From an uncultured Dehalococcoidales bacterium (GTDB lineage: Bacteria > Chloroflexota > Dehalococcoidia > GIF9 > AB-539-J10), in NCBI GenBank assembly GCA_964450165.1, contig CAYVCJ010000001.1, positions 1 to 46,575 on the forward strand: a stretch of 46,575 bases of DNA. The letters run 5' to 3'. Below, piece by piece: positions 8,312-45,559 of the stretch. Positions within the stretch are counted from its first letter, which is position 1. Each line of letters begins with the position of its first letter. A program made the translations under genes and the position numbers. The notes beneath the pieces were generated by a model, which did no database searches, was not told where the DNA came from, and worked only from the letters and a program-made list of their open reading frames with translations.

Positions 8312-9562
8312 ATGAAGATTTGCCTCCTTACTTACAGGGGGAATCCTTACAGTGGTGGTCAAGGCATCTATATCTATTATCTAGCTCGTGAATTACAGCG
8401 CATGGGACATCAAGTGGACGTAATCAGTAGTCAGCCATTTCCCGAATTAAGCGAAGGGATTGCCTTGCACCGCCTCAAAACTTCAAGCATATATTATCGA
8501 GATACCTCGTTTAAGGAAAACTTTCTCAAATGTCGAAGCCTGACCGATTTTGGTGAATTATTCACCACCAAATATGGCATATTTAGTGACCCACTGGCAT
8601 TCAGTGTAAGAGCCTACGCCAAGGTCAAAGAGCTTTGTAAATCACGGAAATTCGATATCATACATGACAATCAAGGGCTTGGTTATGCGCTTCTCTTAAT
8701 GAAAAATTTGGGGATACCAGTCATTGCTACTATCCACCACCCGCTTACTATAGATAAACGGGCTGATTTAGAACAAGCTGATAGCTTGCGAAGTAAGTGG
8801 GGAGTCCACATGTTCTATCTTCTCACCCACATGCAGGCTTTTGTTGCCCGACGCCTGGACAGAGTAATTACAGTATCCCAGAGTTCGGCTAAGGAAATTG
8901 AGAGGTCATTTAAGGTAAATCCGGATAAATTGAGAGTGGTCTATAACGGTACAGATACCGACATCTTTAAGCCAATTGAGGGAGAAACTGACAATAGAAA
9001 TGGCTTAATTATGGTTGGGAATACCGATGATAGGAAGAAAGGGGTTATTTACCTCTTGAAAGCGCTGCAGTTATTAGCGGATGATGGAATAAGGTTAAAT
9101 ATTGTAGATGACCCGTGGCAACGTGTGCCATATGGGGACTCGGTAGAGCCACCACCACCTTCCTATTCTTTGCGTATGTTGGAAAAATTCGGAGTGGATG
9201 GGTTAGTTAGCTTCACCGGGCGACTGACCAAAGAAGAGTTAGTCAGACAATATTCAAGGGCAGAAATAGCCGTGGTACCTTCTCTTTACGAAGGTTTTGG
9301 GTTCCCTGCGTCCGAAGCGATGGCTTGCGGCGTTCCGGTAATAGCCAGTTCCGGTGGAGCTCTCCCTGAAGTAGTGGGGAACGCTGGCATACTTGTCCCA
9401 CCAGGAGAACCTGGACCTTTGGCTGAAGCAATCAAGCGTCTGCTCAAAGATAAACAATTACAACAGGAGCTGGGAGAGGCAGGAAGGAGGAGGGTACAGC
9501 AAGAATTTAGCTGGGAGCAGGCAGCCAACAAAACTGTGAAGGTATACCAGGAGTTATTGTAG
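8312..9562 (+). CDS. GT4-family (GT-B) glycosyltransferase
   Basis: MKICLLTY...GGQGIY N-terminus and C-terminal EGFGFPASEAMACGVPVIAS (E-x7-E). The ORF is open from ATG 8249, with alternative starts at 8303 and 8312. Confidence 0.8.
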   Translation: MKICLLTYRGNPYSGGQGIYIYYLARELQRMGHQVDVISSQPFPELSEGIALHRLKTSSIYYRDTSFKENFLKCRSLTDFGELFTTKYGIFSDPLAFSVRAYAKVKELCKSRKFDIIHDNQGLGYALLLMKNLGIPVIATIHHPLTIDKRADLEQADSLRSKWGVHMFYLLTHMQAFVARRLDRVITVSQSSAKEIERSFKVNPDKLRVVYNGTDTDIFKPIEGETDNRNGLIMVGNTDDRKKGVIYLLKALQLLADDGIRLNIVDDPWQRVPYGDSVEPPPPSYSLRMLEKFGVDGLVSFTGRLTKEELVRQYSRAEIAVVPSLYEGFGFPASEAMACGVPVIASSGGALPEVVGNAGILVPPGEPGPLAEAIKRLLKDKQLQQELGEAGRRRVQQEFSWEQAANKTVKVYQELL

Positions 9563-9566
9563 CGCA

Positions 9567-10292
9567 ATGGTCACTGTAGGACTTGACTTGTTGGGGTTGA
9601 GAGATGGTGATTGGTTACTAGATGCTGGTTGCGGTGAGGGAAGACACTCCTGGGTAGCATCTAAGCGAAATCACTCCACCATTATCGCTTTTGATACTGA
9701 TTTGGAGAGCCTCGAAAAAAATAAATACACTCTGGCTCTATTAAAGCAAAAAGGTGAGGTAAACAGTAATAGCCATCTACTGCAAGCCGATATAACGAGT
9801 CTTCCCTTCAAGGATGGTGCTTTCAATAGGATTATATGCTCTGAAGTTTTAGAGCATATACCTCAAGACCGACAAGCAGTCAGAGAGCTGACTAGAGTAT
9901 TGGATAGTGATGGTGCAATGGGAGTCAGTGTGCCGCATTATCTTGCCGAGTCTATCTGCTGGATGCTTTCCAAGGATTACTACGGTTTTCCGGGAGGGCA
10001 CATAAGGAAATATAAGTCTCGACAAATTACTGCTCTCTTGCACTCCAGTGGACTTAATATCTATGCTATCCGCCGCAACCACGCTCTACATTCGTTTTAC
10101 TGGATACTTCGCTGCCTTTTCGGAATCAAAAGGGAAAATGCCTCGCTCCCTTCCTTATACCATAAGTTCCTGACGATTGATATAGACAACAAGCATAAGG
10201 CTCGGCGCTGGCTGGAGGGTTTCCTTAACCTGATCATCCCCAAGAGCATTGTCATTTACACTCGGAAAAAGGGACACCCTTCACTACAATAA
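9567..10292 (+). CDS. Class I SAM-dependent methyltransferase (type 11-like)
   Basis: LLDAGCGEGRHS (motif I), a DITSLPF acidic loop, and ICSEVLEHIP. Confidence 0.75.
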   Translation: MVTVGLDLLGLRDGDWLLDAGCGEGRHSWVASKRNHSTIIAFDTDLESLEKNKYTLALLKQKGEVNSNSHLLQADITSLPFKDGAFNRIICSEVLEHIPQDRQAVRELTRVLDSDGAMGVSVPHYLAESICWMLSKDYYGFPGGHIRKYKSRQITALLHSSGLNIYAIRRNHALHSFYWILRCLFGIKRENASLPSLYHKFLTIDIDNKHKARRWLEGFLNLIIPKSIVIYTRKKGHPSLQ

Positions 10293-11034
10293 TATCTGCT
10301 AACGAAGGAAACAAACGAGCTGCCTTGTCTAAAGCTCCCAGAATACCATAGCAGATTGGCTTCGGAAGCTTGGAAAGAATGCTGCCCCACCAGGGCATAC
10401 CCCATAACAGAGATATTCCTTTGATGCTCTTTATTTGAAAGTTGGCCTTCACCAAATTGTAGAGTGATTGATAATCGAACTTATATGTATGGTCAACAGG
10501 TAAAACCCAGGGAGTTATTTGCTCTTCAGCTTTCGCCCCAAAAACCACTTTTAACCTGGTAACCTTTTTCCCTATACGAAAACCAAGACTCTCGAAATTG
10601 GCTATGGCAATTATCATCTCCCCTTCGGGCTTAAGCACTCTGGAAATTTCTTCCATGGTTTTACTTGGTGACATGAAGTGGTCCAGTGCTCCTTTGCACA
10701 TAACTTTATCGAAGAAGCATGACTTGAATGGTAGAGTCTCTCCCATACCCTGCAATAAAGCTACTGTCGTGTCAGCTTGAGCAAGGTGCTCCTTAGCTCG
10801 ACCTAGCATTACTCTAGAAGGCTCAAGACCGATAGCTATAGCCCCATTGTTCGCTAACTCAGCGGCATCAACAGCTCTACCACATCCTACATCTAATATA
10901 TATTCACCTTCTTTAGCAGCTACGTCTTGAATGATCAGGCGGGGTGTTTGTCGAAATAAGAACTCTAGGTCGGGATGTATTATCGGCGGCACTACATGGT
11001 CATCATCCCATTTCAAATCTAATTTTTCTTCCAT
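10252..11034 (-). CDS. Class I SAM-dependent methyltransferase
   Basis: [16 protein letters not shown] (motif I), LEPS, and [10 protein letters not shown]. Its 3' end overlaps the convergent methyltransferase by 41 nt. Confidence 0.75.
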
Positions 11035-14124: not shown

Positions 14125-14154
14125 TTGACACTATGTAGCCATGAAGGATATATT
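14125..14154 (+). promoter_or_regulatory. Candidate promoter for tRNA-Ile
   Basis: TTGACA (14125-14130), 18-nt spacer, TATATT (14149-14154), 11 nt before the mature tRNA 5' end. Confidence 0.4.
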
Positions 14155-14165
14155 TATTCAATAAA

Positions 14166-14239
14166 GGGCCATTAGCTCAGTTGGTTAGAGCACGGTCCTG
14201 ATAAGACCGGGGTCTGTGGTTCGAATCCACAATGGCCCA
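14166..14239 (+). tRNA. tRNA-Ile (anticodon GAT)
   Basis: Cloverleaf folded by hand: acceptor GGGCCAT/ATGGCCC, D stem GCTC/GAGC, anticodon stem CGGTC/GACCG with loop CTGATAA, T stem TGTGG/CCACA with loop TTCGAAT. No encoded CCA. Confidence 0.9.
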
Positions 14240-14328
14240 CTATAGGTGTAGAATGCCAATATGCATTAACCCCAGAGCGGCAAAAGAATTATAATCCGGG
14301 GTGAGATTCCCCAAGATTATGAAAGCAT

Positions 14329-16248
14329 ATGGAACCTAATATTGAGACACTTGAGCAAGCAGTAAGTCGAGCTGGCAAGCTTAGCCAGGAAGCAAGGAGA
14401 GCTGCAGAACAATCTGCAAGAGCTTCCCAAGATGCCATAAGCAGAGCTGAGGAAATTAGCCAGGCAGCCATACAGGCTGTTAAGGAAGCAAAGAGAGCCT
14501 CTCGCGACGCTATAAGCAAAGTTGAAAAAATTAGTCAGGCAACTATGGAGGCTGCCCAAGAATCAATAAAGGCAGCCCAAGAAGCAATAAGCAAAGCCCA
14601 GGCATCAGCGAAGACACTTGAAGAAACAGCAAGCAGGATTGAAACATCAGCCCAATCAGCCAAGGATGATACCGAAGCATTGCTAAAGGCATCCCAAGAA
14701 AGAATAAGCAGTGCTGAAGAAATAAGCCGTGCAGCCATCGAAGTTGCTAACAAAGCAGAGGAGGCATCTCGAGAAGCAATAGGTAGGACTGAGGAAGTAA
14801 GTCGTGCAGCAATAGAGGTTGCTGAAAAAGCGAAAAAGACATCACAGAAAGCGGCAACCAAAGCTGAAAAGATAAGTCAAGAAGCCAGAGAGGCTGCTGA
14901 AATACCAATAAAAGCATCGCAAGAAACAATAAGCAAGGCCGAGGCATCAATTAGGCTAGCCACGGAGGCTACGGAGGCGTCGCGAAGGACATTTGAAGAG
15001 GCAATAAGCAGAGCTGACGAAGTAAGTAAAACAGCTATGGAGGCTACACAAGCAGCATCGAGGGTGTTTCAAGAGGCCATGGGCAGAGCTGATAAGATAA
15101 GCAAAACAGCCATGGAGACTACCACGGCGACAGCAAGAGCATCGCAAAAAGCAATCGGTAAAGCTGAAGAAATAAGCCAGGTAGCTTGGGGAGCGGCTGA
15201 AGAGGCAAAAAGGGTGTCTCACGAAACGATGACTAGAGCTGAGAAGATAAGCCAATCAGCCCAGGAAGCGGCTCAAGAGGCAAAGAAACTGTCTCAGGAA
15301 GCAACAAGCAAAGCTGAAGAAATAAGCCAGGTAGCTTGGGGAGCGGCTGAAGAGGCAAAAAGGGTGTCTTACGAAGCGATGACTAGAGCCGAGAAGATGA
15401 GCCAAGGAGCCAAGGAAGCGGCTGAGGAGGCAAAGAAACTGTCTCAGGAAGCAACGAGCAAAGCTGAGAAGATAAGCCAGGCAGCCAAGCAAGCTGCTGA
15501 AGAAGCGAAAAGAGCATCTCAGGAAACAGAAGGTAAGGCTGAACAATTAATCAAATCAGTTATAGAGACTGTCGAAACGGCGGCAAAAACGTCCCGAGAA
15601 GCGATGCGAAGGGCTGAGGAAGCTGCCGAGGAAGCTAAGGGGGTCGCTAGGCAAGTAATAAACGAGGCTGAACAAATAAGCCGAGGCATCCTGGAGGACA
15701 CTGAAGAAGCAAAGAAAGCTTCTCAAAAGGCAATAAGCAAAGTTGACGAAGCAGGCCAAATGGCTAAGGAGACCGCTGAAGAAACGAAAAGAGCATCCCA
15801 GGCCGCTATAAATAAAGGTGAAGAAATAGCTGAAGCGGCTAGCAAAACCATTAGAAAATCTACTGAAGAAGCCAGCAAAGCTGTTATTGCCTCAATAAAG
15901 ACATTCGAAGAGGTAGTTAATAGAGCTGTGGAAACAAGTAAATCAGCCAGGAGGGCTGCAATAGCATCAGTACAAATATTTGAGGAGCTGATAGGCGAGG
16001 CCGGAAAAGAAAGCCAACAAGCTAAGGAAGTTACTGAGGAGCCAGCAAAGGTGTTTGAGGAAGCAATAAGTAAAGATGAAATCAGCGAGGAAGAAGAAGA
16101 GAAGAAGCCAGTAGAGCCCAGCAAGGAAATCGAGGCACGTTTGAACCTGCTCGCCAAAATGTATGCTGCCAATAAAGATAAATATGTTGAAGAAGTTGAA
16201 CAGATTGGGCTGGCAGCAGACGAAGAAGAAGATGTGGAGCAAGACTAA
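14329..16248 (+). CDS. Long alpha-helical tandem-repeat protein (about 20 x 25-residue units), function unknown
   Basis: 639-aa ORF. Almost only A/E/K/S/Q/I/T/R, with no signal peptide or TM segment. Unit consensus is roughly EAISKAEEISQAAxEAAEEAKRASQ. Acidic non-repeat C-terminal tail. Confidence 0.8.
   Translation: MEPNIETLEQAVSRAGKLSQEARRAAEQSARASQDAISRAEEISQAAIQAVKEAKRASRDAISKVEKISQATMEAAQESIKAAQEAISKAQASAKTLEETASRIETSAQSAKDDTEALLKASQERISSAEEISRAAIEVANKAEEASREAIGRTEEVSRAAIEVAEKAKKTSQKAATKAEKISQEAREAAEIPIKASQETISKAEASIRLATEATEASRRTFEEAISRADEVSKTAMEATQAASRVFQEAMGRADKISKTAMETTTATARASQKAIGKAEEISQVAWGAAEEAKRVSHETMTRAEKISQSAQEAAQEAKKLSQEATSKAEEISQVAWGAAEEAKRVSYEAMTRAEKMSQGAKEAAEEAKKLSQEATSKAEKISQAAKQAAEEAKRASQETEGKAEQLIKSVIETVETAAKTSREAMRRAEEAAEEAKGVARQVINEAEQISRGILEDTEEAKKASQKAISKVDEAGQMAKETAEETKRASQAAINKGEEIAEAASKTIRKSTEEASKAVIASIKTFEEVVNRAVETSKSARRAAIASVQIFEELIGEAGKESQQAKEVTEEPAKVFEEAISKDEISEEEEEKKPVEPSKEIEARLNLLAKMYAANKDKYVEEVEQIGLAADEEEDVEQD
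14698..15597 (+). repeat. Twelve consecutive in-register 75-nt (25-codon) coding repeats
   Basis: Residues 124-423 of the 639-aa ORF tile exactly into 25-mers (ERISSAEEISRAAIEVANKAEEASR ... ETEGKAEQLIKSVIETVETAAKTSR). Confidence 0.8.
15160..15459 (+). repeat. Near-identical 150-nt tandem duplication (2 copies, third copy begins at 15460)
   Basis: AAAGCTGAAGAAATAAGCCAGGTAGCTTGGGGAGCGGCTGAAGAGGCAAAAAGGGTGTCT occurs at 15160 and again at 15310. The rest of each unit differs at only a few positions. Confidence 0.85.
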
Positions 16249-16379: not shown

Positions 16380-16877
16380 ATGTTGAGTCAGGAAGAGCAA
16401 TTTCCCGATACTGATATAGACGAAGGAAAAACTGAACAGCAAGTGAAGAAAGTTTCTAAGAAACCCAAGCAAGCCATAGAATCCCTTACTGAAATTCAGC
16501 AACGAGCAATGATGGCTTACGCGGCCTACATGGATGCTGAACGTCAGGTACAAGAGGCGTATAAGCAACAAGAACGACAGATAGAAAAGGTCTATGAAGG
16601 AGCTAAGCAACAAGCTGCGCAGGCTTGTGAGGAAAATATAGCACAGGCATTGAAAACGCGTGAAGCGACTAAGCAACAAGCTGCAAAGTCTTATGAAGAA
16701 ACTATAGCACAGGCATTGAAAGCTCACGAAGAGGCAGAGCAGCAAGCCAGCAGAATCTCTGAGGAAAACATAGCTCAAGCGTTAAAAATCCGTGAGGAGG
16801 CAGAACAACAAGCCTGGAAATCTCGAAATGAAGGTATAGAGCGTACATGGCAAATCTTTACTAAGAGCAAAGGCTAG
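16380..16877 (+). CDS. Small helical repeat protein (3-4 x 22-residue units), function unknown
   Basis: 165 aa. Strong SD AAGGAGG lies 7 nt before the ATG. Repeats are KQQAAQACEENIAQALKTREAT / KQQAAKSYEETIAQALKAHEEAE / QQASRISEENIAQALKIREEAE. Confidence 0.75.
   Translation: MLSQEEQFPDTDIDEGKTEQQVKKVSKKPKQAIESLTEIQQRAMMAYAAYMDAERQVQEAYKQQERQIEKVYEGAKQQAAQACEENIAQALKTREATKQQAAKSYEETIAQALKAHEEAEQQASRISEENIAQALKIREEAEQQAWKSRNEGIERTWQIFTKSKG
16605..16850 (+). repeat. 66/69-nt coding tandem repeats
   Basis: Unit starts at 16605, 16671, 16740 and 16806. The core ATAGCACAGGCATTGAAA is repeated. Confidence 0.7.
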
Positions 16878-16945: not shown

Positions 16946-18118
16946 TTACAACAGCACAGGAATATCACTGAAGATTTCTTCAACTTCTCTATTAGCATAC
17001 TGTAATCCCTGTCTCGCTTTCATAGCCGTGATCAAGTCAATTGCTTTGGTGAAGTAGTTTGTCACCTTTCCTAGAGCGTCAAAATCAGACAGAACTACAG
17101 AAACATCTACTGCCCTTTTTTGCCTAGGATAATCCCCACTTCGTATCAAGGCATTCGGGGCTACCGCCCTCAAATTGTCTCCAAGCTCTTTCATTACGTC
17201 CATATTCATCTCTCCAGCTGGTGCGGAGAGAAGGTAAAGAGCTCTCCTCGCACTTCTAGGGTCACATGTGAGCGACAGTTCACTTAGAGCCCTATCCATT
17301 GCATGGACTCCCTTGTTGGTTTCAGTCATCTTGTCCTTGAAGTGAGCTTTGTCCTTGAGCGGCAATTTCCTCCGCCGAATTAGCGATTTACCTACCCCAA
17401 TTGCTGTCCACCCTGCAAGAGTCTGTATTATATCTCCAGCGTCGAGCACCTTTGATCCAATATACTTTGGCTTCGTCTCCTCACCAGCACAAAGTAGATT
17501 GTAAAATGGCTCAACTATCCGGGCATTAATCCTCGCCAGGTTTTCTGAAATTGAGGAATCCTTCCTGATATACCTCTGGTTATCAACAAGAATTATGGCG
17601 TCAGCTATTAAATATACCGATTTAAGGCAAATAGCAGTATTGTAAATCGTTCTTGCTTCGGATGTTTCTTCCTGTCGAAAAGGGAGAACAATTATATTAT
17701 AAATTGGTTTTCCTACATAGCGCTCTTTTAGGAACCGCGTTAATACCCCTATTGCTCCAGAGCCAGTGCCCCCGGCAGCACCGGCAATCAATAGAAAAGC
17801 ATCAGTTTCAGGAAACCGTTCCGCTGCCCTTACAGCATCTATGATCTTGTCGCCGTCTTCCCTCGCTATTTCAGCGCCAAGTTCACTTATCTTACCTACT
17901 CCATGCCCACCAGTCTTTTGCCCTCCCACAACAATCCTGTGTTTGTAGTCAGCTTTGATGTTGGATAGTCCACTTAAATCAGCAATGTCTGTATTAATAG
18001 CGAAGATATCAGCAATTACGTCAAGTTTGCGTACAACTTGGGCTCTCTTGTTAAGCCAGGCAAACCTATCAGCAATTCTGCCACCACATTGCCCCAGACC
18101 CATAACTAGTAGCTTCAT
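16946..18118 (-). CDS. Tubulin/FtsZ-superfamily GTPase, CetZ/tubulin-like rather than canonical FtsZ
   Basis: 390 aa. GLGQCGG (res 7-13), INTD (41-44), GGHGVG (70-75), GAAGGTGSG (113-121; nt 17756-17773 encode GGTGSG), VDNQRY (178-183), LDAGDIIQTLAG (225-236), GDYP (328-331). C-terminus is EEIFSDIPVLL. Confidence 0.8.
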   Translation of the reverse strand: MKLLVMGLGQCGGRIADRFAWLNKRAQVVRKLDVIADIFAINTDIADLSGLSNIKADYKHRIVVGGQKTGGHGVGKISELGAEIAREDGDKIIDAVRAAERFPETDAFLLIAGAAGGTGSGAIGVLTRFLKERYVGKPIYNIIVLPFRQEETSEARTIYNTAICLKSVYLIADAIILVDNQRYIRKDSSISENLARINARIVEPFYNLLCAGEETKPKYIGSKVLDAGDIIQTLAGWTAIGVGKSLIRRRKLPLKDKAHFKDKMTETNKGVHAMDRALSELSLTCDPRSARRALYLLSAPAGEMNMDVMKELGDNLRAVAPNALIRSGDYPRQKRAVDVSVVLSDFDALGKVTNYFTKAIDLITAMKARQGLQYANREVEEIFSDIPVLL

Positions 18119-18125
18119 TCAAGTT

Positions 18126-18155
18126 ATTTTAGCTAAATTTGTATCATGATGTCAA
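18126..18155 (-). promoter_or_regulatory. Near-consensus promoter for the tubulin-like gene; predicted leaderless mRNA
   Basis: Minus strand: TTGACA (18155-18150), 18-nt spacer, TAAAAT (18131-18126), then 7 nt (AACTTGA, no SD) before ATG at 18118. Confidence 0.45.
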
Positions 18156-18203: not shown

Positions 18204-18599
18204 TTAGCGCTTAGTGTATTGTGGCGCTTTACGAGCCCGCTTAAGACCGTATTTCTTACGTTCTTTGACTCTGGCATCTCGAGTGAGCAACCCTTCCTGT
18301 CGCAACAGAGATTTAAATGACTCGTTCTGTTTGACTAGAGCTCGGGCAATGCCGTGCTGAATAGCCGTAGCCTGCCCACTCAAACCGCCGCCTCTTATCT
18401 TTATAGTAGTGTCATAGCTGCCCATGGTTTCAGTAACTCGACCAGGGGCTTCTATTAATTGACGATGTAAAAGACGAGGAAAAACCTCTTGATAAGGCTT
18501 ACCATTGACAATAATCTTTCCGTCACCAGGGAAAAGTCTGACTCTCGCTATAGCGCATTTACGCCTTCCCGTGCCCCAGACATAAGCTTGCTCATCCAT
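18204..18599 (-). CDS. rpsI: 30S ribosomal protein S9
   Basis: GTGRRKCAIARVRL motif and C-terminal ...KRARKAPQYTKR. Confidence 0.95.
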   Translation of the reverse strand: MDEQAYVWGTGRRKCAIARVRLFPGDGKIIVNGKPYQEVFPRLLHRQLIEAPGRVTETMGSYDTTIKIRGGGLSGQATAIQHGIARALVKQNESFKSLLRQEGLLTRDARVKERKKYGLKRARKAPQYTKR

Positions 18600-18605
18600 T
18601 GAATT

Positions 18606-19028
18606 TCATCTCCTTGATGTGACTTGAACATGATGTGGATGCTCATTCCCGGAATAAACTTTTAGTTTCTTAAACATAGCTTTGCCCAAGCGGTTCTTGG
18701 GTAACATTCCCTTAACAGCTATTTCTATTACCCGTGTAGGACGCTTGGAGAATAATTCCTGGAAACTAAGTTCTCTCAACCCTCCAGGATAACCAGAATG
18801 CCGATAGTAAATCTTTTGTTTACCTTTCTTACCAGTAACCTTCACCTTGGCAGCATTAAGCACTATAACATAATCACCAGTATCAAGATGAGGTGTATAA
18901 ATTGGTTTATGCTTTCCCATTAACAGTTTAGCTATCTGGGATGCTAATCTACCCAGAACCTGTCCAGTGGCATCAACGACCTGCCACTCTCGCTTAATCT
19001 CTGTGGAGCTAGGACTAGGAGTCTTCAT
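18606..19028 (-). CDS. rplM: 50S ribosomal protein L13
   Basis: [30 protein letters not shown]. Confidence 0.95.
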
Positions 19029-43563: not shown

Positions 43564-43727
43564 GCTTCTCCCTTTTTAGCATAGGCTAATTCAGCCACCA
43601 CTACATTTGTAGTCTTAATTTTAGCTTCAATCACATTTTTTTGAAAATATTCCATTTACCATATAGACATTACGAATCATCTTTATTTACAATAGTTAGA
43701 TTAATAATATTTACTACTCGTAAGCAA

Positions 43728-44594
43728 ATGTCAAATCGCATCAAAGTAGTCTCTCAAGATAGCATGCATAGCAATCCGTTCGATCTATCTGTGCCGGAGC
43801 TTACACAGATGGCAAAAAAGGTACGCCAGCACATAATTAGTATGATCGCTACAGCAGGCAGCGGACATCCCGGAGGTTCTTTATCAGCGACAGACATCAT
43901 CACTGCACTTTACTTCAAAATTATGCACTATGACCCGCATAATCCTGGATGGCAAGACCGGGACCGTTTTATATTAAGCAAAGGACATGGCGCTCCAGCT
44001 TTATATGCCGTCCTGGCTGAAAGTGACTACTTCCCAGTAGAGGAATTGACCACATTGAGAAAACTAGACAGCCGCCTCCAAGGACATGCCGACAGAAACT
44101 TTACCCCTGGAGTGGAAATGTCAGCAGGCTCGTTAGGTCAAGGTTTATCCTTCGGCATTGGTATCGCACTAGCTGCCAGGCTTGATGAGCGCGATTATCA
44201 AACTTATGTTCTCCTTAGCGATGGTGAATGTGAAGAAGGGCAAACTTGGGAGGCAGCTTTATCAGCTCCCCACTTCAAATTAGACAACTTGACCGTCATT
44301 ATTGACCGTAATCGACAGCAACTCAGCGGCTGGACTCGAAATATCATGGACGTCGAGCCGTTAAATGAAAAATGGCAAGCTTTCGGTTGGCATACTATTG
44401 AAATAGATGGCCATAGCTTTAATCAAATTCTAGCTGCTTTCGAGGAAGCCAAGACAATTAAAGGCAAGCCAACCATCATCATCGCGCATACCATTAAAGG
44501 TAAGGGAGTTAGCTTCATGGAAAATAACGTTGAATTCCATGGCAAGGCACCTACCGCGGAAGAAGCGGAAAGAGCGTTAGAGGAGCTGGGATAA
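43728..44594 (+). CDS. Transketolase, N-terminal (TPP-binding) subunit of a split enzyme
   Basis: ATAGSGHPGGSLS, LSKGHGAPALYA and GSLGQGL. The ORF is open from 43641; the ATG at 43728 gives the usual length. Confidence 0.85.
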   Translation: MSNRIKVVSQDSMHSNPFDLSVPELTQMAKKVRQHIISMIATAGSGHPGGSLSATDIITALYFKIMHYDPHNPGWQDRDRFILSKGHGAPALYAVLAESDYFPVEELTTLRKLDSRLQGHADRNFTPGVEMSAGSLGQGLSFGIGIALAARLDERDYQTYVLLSDGECEEGQTWEAALSAPHFKLDNLTVIIDRNRQQLSGWTRNIMDVEPLNEKWQAFGWHTIEIDGHSFNQILAAFEEAKTIKGKPTIIIAHTIKGKGVSFMENNVEFHGKAPTAEEAERALEELG

Positions 44595-44596
44595 TC

Positions 44597-45559
44597 ATGA
44601 CTGTGGAAGCATCCACTCGCGAGGCTTATGGCAGAACCCTGATTGAACTTGGCAAACAAAACAAAGACATTGTTGTTTTAGATGCCGATCTATCACTGTC
44701 AACAATGACTCACTTTTTTGCACAAGAATTCCCACAGCGCTTCTTCGACTGTGGTTTAGAGGAACAAAACATGATAGGCATAGCTGCTGGATTGGCTGCT
44801 TCAGGAAAAATCGTTTTTGCCAGCTCTTTCGCTGTTTTCGCTTCATGCCGTTGCTTTGACCAAGTCAGGTTGTGTGTTTCCCAACCAAAGCTAAATGTTA
44901 AAATCGTGGCTACCCACAGTGGCATTAGCGTTGGCGAAGACGGCACTTCTCACCACGCCATCGAGGATTTATCGTTATATTGCGCACTTCCCAGTTTTAC
45001 TGTTATTGTCCCCGCTGATGCTATCGAAACTACCAAGGCAGTAAAAGCGGCTGCAGCTACCTACGGACCTTTTTACATCAGATTAAGCCGTCCCAAGACA
45101 CCACTCATCTACCATGAAGACCATCACTTCATAGTGGGTAAGTCGATAACCTTGAGACCTGGTAAAGACGTTACCATTATAGCCATGGGCATTATGGTAG
45201 CTAAAGCTTTACAAGCAGCACAGAAACTGGCAACACAAGGAATAGATAGCCGTGTAATTGATATGCACACTCTCAACCCCCTGGATGCGGAAGCTATAAT
45301 CAAAGCAGCTTCAGAGACAGGCGCTATTGTCGTTGCTGAGGAGCATCTAGCACACGGTGGTCTGGGCAGCCGTGTTGCTCAAGTAGTAGTTGAAGAAAAG
45401 CCAGTGCCTATGTCCTTCGTCAACCTTAAAGACCATTATGCTTCGTCGGGCAAAGCCGAGGAACTGCTTCGAAGATTTGGGCTGACCGCGGAAGGTATCG
45501 AGGAAGCAGCAAAGCAAGTTGTTCAAAAGAAAAGAAGTTTCCTTCCTGGAGATGCCTAG
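44597..45559 (+). CDS. Transketolase, C-terminal (pyrimidine-binding) subunit
   Basis: REAYGRTLIELG, VVLDADLS, FDCGLEEQNMIG and EDGTSHH. Confidence 0.85.
   Translation: MTVEASTREAYGRTLIELGKQNKDIVVLDADLSLSTMTHFFAQEFPQRFFDCGLEEQNMIGIAAGLAASGKIVFASSFAVFASCRCFDQVRLCVSQPKLNVKIVATHSGISVGEDGTSHHAIEDLSLYCALPSFTVIVPADAIETTKAVKAAAATYGPFYIRLSRPKTPLIYHEDHHFIVGKSITLRPGKDVTIIAMGIMVAKALQAAQKLATQGIDSRVIDMHTLNPLDAEAIIKAASETGAIVVAEEHLAHGGLGSRVAQVVVEEKPVPMSFVNLKDHYASSGKAEELLRRFGLTAEGIEEAAKQVVQKKRSFLPGDA

Follow-up and report, generated by a model that had tools for sequence, protein, structure and literature searches.

We analysed a 46,575-nucleotide (nt) stretch of DNA, hereafter the window, from an uncultured Dehalococcoidales bacterium (GenBank assembly GCA_964450165.1, contig CAYVCJ010000001.1, positions 1 to 46,575). 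The minus strand of the window encodes, at 16946..18118, a CetZ-family GTPase of the tubulin/FtsZ superfamily with an ATG start and a length of 390 amino acids (aa). Two plus-strand genes are convergent with it: CC165 (16380..16877), which encodes a 165-aa alpha-helical repeat protein and is separated from the CetZ-like gene by a 68-bp gap, and the adjoining CC639 (14329..16248), which encodes a 639-aa Ala/Glu/Lys/Ser-rich repeat protein. Every motif quoted in a preliminary description of this DNA, which had given no strand, was present in the translation of the open reading frame (ORF): GLGQCGG at residues 7-13, GAAGGTGSG at 113-121, VDNQRY at 178-183, LDAGDIIQTLAG at 225-236 and GDYP at 328-331, with the protein ending in EEIFSDIPVLL. 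The protein consists of a GTPase domain (residues 1-185), a CetZ_C domain (188-360), a C-terminal helix (350-369), a short linker and a terminal peptide (383-390).

Profile searches placed the protein in the CetZ family. It matched the Pfam families Tubulin (PF00091; residues 3-183, E=6.8e-31, 108.5 bits against a cut-off of 33) and CetZ_C (PF21011; residues 188-360, E=1.8e-17, 63.8 bits against a cut-off of 21.6), with the second match spanning profile positions 2-179 of 180. Its score against the FtsZ equivalog TIGR00065 was 54.2 bits, below the cut-off of 295.2, and the Pfam search returned no FtsZ_C domain in it. The top three phmmer matches among PDB sequences were Haloferax CetZ1 (4b46, 3.6e-38), CetZ2 (4b45, 5.6e-23) and Methanosaeta CetZ (3zid, 2.2e-16); bacterial FtsZs scored between about 1e-10 and 1e-5 (best FtsZ, 4.5e-10), and BtubA/B about 1e-5. 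The 120 best relatives in a large database were 390-404 aa long and 64-99% identical to the window protein, and each combined Tubulin with CetZ_C; the CetZ_C annotation was precomputed on all 240 homologues listed. Where these 120 matches had named sources, the sources were metagenome-assembled genomes (MAGs) of Dehalococcoidia or Chloroflexota, in which the relatives were labelled "cell division protein FtsZ", "tubulin/FtsZ family protein" or "tubulin-like protein CetZ".

We modelled the protein with AlphaFold2 from an alignment of 64 sequences of 24-83% identity, obtaining a predicted local distance difference test score (pLDDT) of 93.3 and a predicted template modelling score (pTM) of 0.92; an alignment of 24 close orthologues gave a pLDDT of 56.6 and was unusable. 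Foldseek comparison of the model with the PDB ranked CetZ1 first, with a target-normalised template modelling (TM) score of 0.93 and a root-mean-square deviation (rmsd) of 1.9 A, followed by CetZ2 (4b45, TM 0.91) and Methanosaeta CetZ, the rmsd for the first three ranks being 1.9-4.1 A. About forty FtsZ structures came next (TM 0.71-0.84, rmsd 3.2-4.5 A), with TubZ at ranks 40 and 42, so that CetZ folds outranked every FtsZ. The model also contains the extra C-terminal helix of the CetZ/tubulin type at residues 350-369; after about ten more residues the terminal peptide forms a short helix. In a neighbour-joining (NJ) tree built from 369 alignment columns for CetZ-type proteins and FtsZ only (82 sequences in all) and rooted on Dehalococcoidales FtsZ, all 80 CetZ-type sequences (including Haloferax volcanii CetZ1 and the Halogeometricum and Haloplanus CetZs) were split from Dehalococcoidales FtsZ with 100% bootstrap support. 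Taking the CetZ_C match together with the TIGR00065 score, the Foldseek ranking and this split, the window gene is a CetZ-family member of the tubulin/FtsZ superfamily in a Dehalococcoidales bacterium, and the preference of the preliminary description for CetZ over FtsZ was borne out.

The catalytic loops were strictly conserved. G.GQCGG, GGTGSG, DNQRY and DAGDIIQTL were invariant in 24 orthologues (64-83% identity) and in all paralogue classes. The segment LDAGDIIQTLAG, previously suggested as a plausible T7 loop, indeed contains two invariant acidic residues, D226 and D229, the second of which aligns with E218 of CetZ1, reportedly the residue mutated in GTPase-deficient CetZ1. Because the nucleotide loops and the T7 loop are invariant and D229 occupies the position of CetZ1 E218, the window protein is predicted to be equipped for polymerisation-coupled GTP hydrolysis.

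The C-terminal tail was conserved as well. Residues F383, D385, I386, P387, L389 and L390 were invariant in the 24 orthologues, and in three independent sets of homologues the pattern [DENQ][ILV]P.L[LIFM] lay no more than three residues from the C-terminus in 113/118, 120/120 and 97/100 members (about 98%). All paralogue classes kept the tail along with the GTPase loops and T7. Canonical FtsZs of the same lineage end in …EELAVPAFLRQ… or …DELDVPSFLRK…, and the likeness between these ends and the CetZ-like tail means that two tubulin homologues of one cell carry similar peptides. Divergent representatives of the CetZ family often end in related peptides too, such as SKDIPPLL in a Bathyarchaeia CetZ-like protein and DDRIDGLL in a Haloplanus CetZ. 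H. volcanii CetZ1 ends in a conserved hydrophobic LESLF, whose mutation abolishes rod development, and its tail has been proposed to contact the adjacent subunit (bioRxiv 10.1101/2024.04.08.588506). Since CetZ1, Bathyarchaeia, Haloplanus and other divergent representatives all have such ends, comparison of the sequences indicates that the tail is a CetZ family trait and not the mark of an FtsZ/CetZ hybrid, with the Dehalococcoidia form being the most FtsZ-like. The DIPxLL tail to which the preliminary description drew attention is thus conserved in orthologues, but the view of it as an FtsZ feature on a CetZ body did not hold, given the comparable tails of archaeal CetZs.

We compared gene neighbourhoods in the best 80 loci among at least 393 genomes with a relative; these 80 loci held 100 CetZ-like ORFs. 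The CetZ-like gene, CC165 and CC639 formed a three-gene module whose order and orientation were fixed wherever it was found. CC165 was present in 69/80 loci and CC639 in 68/80 (counted by adjacency, 68-69 and 68-70, respectively), with any other neighbour family in at most 24/80, and the conserved neighbourhood of the 80 loci contained no mobile-element genes. Among the 100 ORFs, 68 had CC165 directly downstream, 17 were a second paralogue lying upstream of CC639 in divergent orientation (A→ ←CC165 ←CC639 B→), and five were the first copy in a tandem pair. Two intact paralogues were found in about 21 of the 80 loci. A further type (P0122, at locus L083) with about 50% identity and the tail ELPLLL also adjoined a convergent CC165-like ORF (E=5e-17).

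Both partner genes encode repeat proteins. In the CC165 alignment, a variable, charged N-terminus was followed by a conserved block, L.E.QQRA..AYAAY.EAERQ...AYK..E.Q.EKAY, in which a Tyr recurs every 11 residues; the C-terminal part consisted of 22-aa repeats in variable number and then a conserved E..ER.W.IFTK.RK with an invariant Trp. Autocorrelation at period 25 resolved CC639 (21% Ala, 17% Glu, 10% Lys and 9% Ser) into about 20 repeats, each of 25 residues, with the approximate consensus ISRAEEISQEAIEAAEKAKKASQEA. Its ends were conserved, with FE.AVARAE.LSQAAR.AAE.S at the N-terminus and I.ARL.FLAKMYA..K, followed by an acidic tail, at the C-terminus. Neither protein had a signal peptide or a Pfam match to a known family. 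Searches of Pfam and the PDB with a CC165 profile gave only noise (DUF6240 in 4/28 members; maltodextrin phosphorylase at E=0.04), and a search of 5.8 billion proteins with this profile returned solely "hypothetical proteins" of Dehalococcoidales type. To judge from their sequences, CC165 and CC639 are an undescribed pair of helical-repeat proteins.

Two ideas about these proteins were discarded. A part for CC639 as a "ruler" with one repeat per filament subunit was not supported, as 25 residues would extend over about 3.7 nm in an alpha-helix and the longitudinal repeat of CetZ1 is given as 4.2 nm. The sequence P0343 (254 aa, on a 1026-bp Logan contig), in which CetZ-like residues 1-115 are joined to a CC165 homologue, looked like a natural CetZ-CC165 fusion. 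Its junction falls within the T4 loop (…SAAG|VREQ…) on a contig of only 1 kb, and it is most likely a chimera assembled across the two convergent genes. Separately, a 319-aa protein from a Dehalococcoidales MAG (P0359) has a PAS sensor domain fused to a CC165-like C-terminal module, …QAERAYAAYMDAERQVAKAYHENE…, with the end …AWDIYSKIAK. This PAS fusion suggests that the CC165 module can be placed under the control of a sensor, as a domain for output or interaction.

Upstream of the CetZ-like gene we found a sigma-70-type promoter, TTGACA-18-TAAAAT (18126..18155, minus strand), which matches the consensus at 11 of 12 positions. Its -10 element ends 7 nt upstream of the ATG, and no Shine-Dalgarno sequence was seen there, which predicts a leaderless mRNA. 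In a comparison with loci L001-L041, the arrangement throughout the subclade of the window was TTGACA-N17/18-TAnAAT at 6-7 nt from the start codon, again without a Shine-Dalgarno sequence, so leaderless translation of the CetZ-like gene is predicted for one Dehalococcoidales subclade. In the sister subclade, Dehalococcoidaceae, the promoter lay about 25-30 nt upstream and was followed by a GGTG-type Shine-Dalgarno sequence. The CetZ-like gene would be transcribed from this strong promoter of its own, which would make it a separate transcription unit even though it lies downstream of rpsI.

Dehalococcoidales and SAR202 have lost their peptidoglycan genes and have an S-layer-like wall (PMC10608941). 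With a probability of roughly 60%, we read the window protein as a GTP-driven filament of the CetZ branch that is accessory to FtsZ-FtsA and acts with CC165 and CC639 as partners in cell shape or envelope organisation. The protein most likely binds GTP and then polymerises head to tail into protofilaments, with hydrolysis firing when the T7 loop (D226/D229) of one subunit enters the nucleotide pocket of the next, as it does in CetZ1, FtsZ and tubulin. A basic/aromatic M-loop (residues 244-266) may provide membrane or lateral contacts. The F-x-D-I-P-x-L-L peptide on its short linker is most likely a docking peptide, and we infer as candidate receptors a CC protein, FtsA (whose usual ligand here would be the FtsZ peptide E-L-x-V-P-x-F-L-R) and/or the neighbouring subunit. 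CC165 and CC639 probably work with the filament as scaffolds or adaptors, as their conserved adjacency suggests. By analogy with haloarchaeal CetZ1, the filament would likely organise shape or envelope in these peptidoglycan-free, S-layer-like-walled cells.

Published proteomics fits such a module. In Dehalococcoides mccartyi BTF08, Kruse et al. 2021 (PMC8163811) detected FtsZ (btf_0595), a distinct protein annotated "FtsZ/Tubulin GTPase" (btf_0551) and a hypothetical protein whose gene lies close by (btf_0548). Levels of the three were high in pure cultures, which have disc-shaped cells; in co-cultures, where the cells became barrel-shaped, the proteins were reduced or undetected (PMC8163811).

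Several points weigh against the reading of a shape filament with two partners. The proteomic argument presupposes that btf_0551 and btf_0548 are orthologous to the module, and no named isolates occurred among the best 120 matches of a profile search for divergent copies. CC165 and CC639 run towards the CetZ-like gene and are not co-transcribed with it, so that a functional link would follow from their conserved adjacency. More distant paralogues (the P0121 and P0148 types) occur without CC partners, and in locus L066 a CetZ-like gene directly follows ftsZ, which fits a role in division as well as one in shape. The deep nodes of the NJ tree have 0-48% support, so the tree settles neither the relation to archaeal clades nor the direction and date of any transfer. 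Finally, the function proposed for the family is a prediction from sequence, gene order and modelling.

These more distant paralogues have surroundings of their own. The P0121 type, a Dehalococcoidia paralogue (L085, 842-2020; L086, 2264-3442), has about 51% identity and the tail …DLPSLE, and belongs to a cluster of 269 members. It is convergent with a gene for a 457-aa protein matching the C-terminal domain of the terminase large subunit, and lies downstream of a gene for a large membrane protein with immunoglobulin-like repeats. The P0148/P0303 type (L081 and L082; 8001-9257) is a divergent CetZ_C tubulin-like protein of 418 aa with the tail …LPDL, surrounded by IS605/TnpB, resolvase, IS66 and group II intron genes. 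The gene directly downstream of it (9322-10305) encodes a conserved protein of 327 aa that carries a membrane anchor at its N-terminus and lacks Pfam domains. This locus may be a mobile or accessory CetZ-like system.

Canonical FtsZ and FtsA occur in the same lineage. The window itself contained no ftsZ, ftsA, sepF or minD. In the Dehalococcoidales MAG L066 (5811-11176) the gene order was mraZ-rsmH-ftsA-ftsZ-cetZ-like-nrdR-nrdJ, with no CC165 or CC639 nearby; this copy, with the tail …SKNIPTLL, may represent a third paralogue class. In L060, ftsA-ftsZ lay about 6 kb from the module. The FtsZs of L066 and L060 scored 414 and 400 bits against TIGR00065, and their FtsAs 391 and 343 bits against TIGR01174. 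Published work recorded mraZ, mraW, ftsA and ftsZ in D. mccartyi and in every high-quality genome of Dehalococcoidales and SAR202 that it examined (PMC10608941). Because the lineage keeps a canonical FtsZ-FtsA pair, the CetZ-like protein is an additional element and not the division FtsZ. The preliminary description had thought of it as possibly the division filament of the cell; as a primary role this is unlikely, with canonical FtsZ and FtsA encoded on the same contigs in L060 and L066 and in the genomes of PMC10608941.

A place in the divisome could still be imagined for an additional element. The protein would then co-assemble with the FtsZ ring or modulate it through a shared or contested FtsA (or SepF) anchor, much as two archaeal FtsZ paralogues divide their labour. 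Its D-I-P-x-L-L tail resembles the (L)-x-V-P-x-F-L peptide of same-lineage FtsZ, and the L066 copy directly downstream of mraZ-rsmH-ftsA-ftsZ, like the ftsA-ftsZ pair about 6 kb off in L060, would suit it. The authors of the D. mccartyi proteomics likewise classed the tubulin-like protein, whose level fell together with that of FtsZ, among the division proteins (PMC8163811). However, a CetZ-like gene adjoined ftsZ in 1/100 copies, ftsZ lay within 10 kb in 2/80 loci, and the neighbours that are conserved encode the CC proteins, with no divisome genes among them. The modelled linker is very short compared with that of FtsZ, and H. volcanii CetZ1 acts in shape and motility, with no division role found in the literature searched. 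We regard a divisome role as the leading alternative to the shape filament, though a rather improbable one.

The preferred reading of a shape filament also presupposes polymerisation, which is predicted for the window protein. The protein might instead be a degenerate GTPase paralogue that does not polymerise and was co-opted to regulate or scaffold without forming filaments. The superfamily includes members, such as FtsZl-1 and Misato-like proteins, outside the classical filament type. We consider such a loss of polymerisation improbable, since every paralogue class keeps all loops that contact the nucleotide and the T7 catalytic residues unchanged, and the predicted fold superposes on protofilament-forming CetZ2 (4b45) with a TM score of 0.91.

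The gene has bacterial surroundings and a wide distribution. Core genes of the window encode RecA, RecX, SecD, SecF, GyrA, the CCA-adding enzyme, bacterial-type S10 and L2, as well as EF-G, SecY, RpoA, L17, TruA, L13 and S9; the flanks of the CetZ-like gene are therefore core bacterial genes on the same contig, in agreement with the bacterial context described before. Immediately upstream of the CetZ-like gene and outside the module are the minus-strand genes rpsI (18204-18599; Pfam Ribosomal_S9) and rplM (18606-19028; Pfam L13). The position next to rpsI was considered as a conserved feature and rejected: linkage to rpsI/rplM/truA occurred in 6/80 loci, all from close relatives.

In a scan of one genome per GTDB species, relatives were present in at least 393 species genomes. 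The best 80 of the 393 relatives were 59-94% identical to the window protein and all came from Dehalococcoidia, Dehalococcoidales or Dehalococcoidaceae MAGs, the nearest (L040, L001 and L002) having about 94% identity. A profile of the more divergent copies matched more than 7,100 90%-identity clusters at E<=1e-20. The CetZ-like gene has a GC content of 0.447 and a GC content at third codon positions (GC3) of 0.402, the GC3 range of the host being 0.355-0.452, and comparison of GC and GC3 with the host revealed no compositional signs of recent transfer. Since at least 393 species carry relatives and the composition is host-like, the gene has long been resident and was passed on vertically, in contrast to a recently imported gene. 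The preliminary description had offered lateral acquisition as one explanation; a sporadic event of this kind does not agree with the count of at least 393 GTDB species genomes, with the existence of more than 7,000 90%-identity clusters or with host-like GC and GC3.

The NJ tree grouped the window protein in a clade of 36 sequences (87% bootstrap) with the other Dehalococcoidia-labelled groups, P0122 from its bacterial context and P0148 from its mobile-element context. Haloarchaeal CetZ1 and CetZ2, the Bathyarchaeia sequence and the Nitrososphaerales sequences fell outside this clade. The idea that the gene is a recent archaeal transfer, a mobile or plasmid segregation tubulin of the TubZ/PhuZ kind with no host function, or an archaeal contaminant of the bin has in its favour that the family is otherwise described as archaeal, that the P0148 type sits among insertion-sequence elements and resolvases and the P0121 type adjoins a terminase-like gene, and that TubZ appears at Foldseek ranks 40 and 42, but it is extremely improbable and essentially refuted for this clade by the core bacterial flanks on one contig, the wide distribution and host-like GC and GC3, a conserved neighbourhood free of mobile-element genes, a model that CetZ structures fit far better than TubZ, the bacterial sigma-70 promoter and the implausibility of chimeric contigs across 80 independent MAGs.

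Among known systems, the window protein most closely resembles archaeal CetZ, as represented by H. volcanii CetZ1 and CetZ2 and Methanosaeta thermophila CetZ. They share the Tubulin plus CetZ_C architecture, the best sequence and fold matches, the GGTGSG T4 loop, the acidic T7 residue at the CetZ1 E218 position, the extra C-terminal helix and a short tail with a conserved hydrophobic peptide. Several paralogues per genome, and hosts that lack peptidoglycan and have an S-layer-type envelope, are further common traits. By contrast, the host here is bacterial, although the family has been described as archaea-specific (a label of taxonomy, with no bearing on molecular membership), and identity to CetZ1 and CetZ2 is 25-27%. 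The T1 motif reads G-Q-C-G-G here and G-Q-A-G-G in the haloarchaeal proteins, the D-I-P-x-L-L tail contains a proline whereas CetZ1 has L-E-S-L-F, and the M-loop is basic/aromatic where CetZ1 has an amphipathic protrusion. The present family also coexists with an FtsA-based divisome and is accompanied by CC165 and CC639, whereas no such partners were seen for archaeal cetZ regions in the passages of PMC9856176 consulted.

With bacterial FtsZ, the protein has in common the superfamily fold, an expected GTP-dependent polymerisation and a D/E-[IV]-P-x-[FL]-L C-terminal peptide like that of FtsZ in this lineage. It differs in its TIGR00065 score (54 against 295 bits), the lack of FtsZ_C, its short linker and a GGTGSG T4 loop in place of the FtsZ consensus GGGTGTG given in the preliminary description. 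Its gene lies outside the dcw cluster with one exception, and true FtsZ is present in the same genomes. Prosthecobacter BtubA/BtubB are likewise non-FtsZ members of the tubulin superfamily in bacteria, with paired paralogues at one locus; however, they matched at E about 1e-5 only, the kinesin-light-chain-like partner bklc has no counterpart here, and both paralogues of the present family keep the catalytic T7 residues. TubZ/PhuZ, also bacterial tubulin-superfamily proteins other than FtsZ, differ in ranking 40 and 42 (TubZ) in the Foldseek comparison and in the TubR-type partner, which is absent here. The present gene lies on the chromosome, occurs throughout the lineage and is passed on vertically.

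Earlier work had already recorded the family in bacteria. Santana-Molina et al. 2023 (PMC9871819) devoted one sentence to "CetZ-like" Chloroflexota-Dehalococcoidia sequences forming "sparse paraphyletic groups" and matched by a CetZ C-terminal hidden Markov model. These are almost certainly the same family, which we find in at least 393 species, with several paralogues, two linked partner genes, a promoter of its own and a conserved tail. The earlier suggestion of an uncharacterised bacterial clade needs the correction that PMC9871819 had already reported Dehalococcoidia CetZ-like proteins. We found no further paper tying CetZ to Dehalococcoidia in the literature searched, and CetZ papers from 2024-2026 still describe the family as archaea-specific. 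The literature searched also contained no account of the module, the paralogy, the promoter or the co-occurrence with FtsZ, and these, with the tail statistics, are what is new here for a known family. No direct CetZ binding partner was found reported in the CetZ literature searched.

A more far-reaching combination can be put forward tentatively. Dehalococcoidales would have a self-contained CetZ cytoskeleton of one to three paralogues and two dedicated partners that took over shape and envelope organisation when peptidoglycan was lost, and its FtsZ-like tail, by sharing or contesting the FtsA anchor, would couple shape to division. If true, no earlier CetZ system outside archaea would have had its partner proteins identified, and a bacterium with an S-layer and no wall would have come to "archaeal-style" cell biology by convergence or transfer.

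The findings bear on several fields. They define a very large bacterial CetZ branch, so far confined to Dehalococcoidia-type bacteria, and CC165 and CC639 offer directly testable candidate partners for CetZ. One type of conserved C-terminal peptide occurs on two different tubulin homologues of the same cell, and the control of disc shape in a wall-less bacterium amounts to a natural experiment. Dehalococcoides is a key organism for the bioremediation of chlorinated solvents, and proteomics published for it gives a first hint that a second tubulin-like protein, a putative orthologue of the window protein, is connected with cell morphology.

Two minor features of the window were also recorded. 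A lone tRNA-Ile(GAT) gene (14166-14240, plus strand) lies between the gene for the oxaloacetate decarboxylase beta subunit and CC639, outside any rRNA operon, and is preceded by a promoter-like site at 14125-14154 with 11/12 matches. Transketolase is split into two plus-strand ORFs at 43641-45559, which encode an N-terminal half of 317 aa and a C-terminal half of 320 aa.

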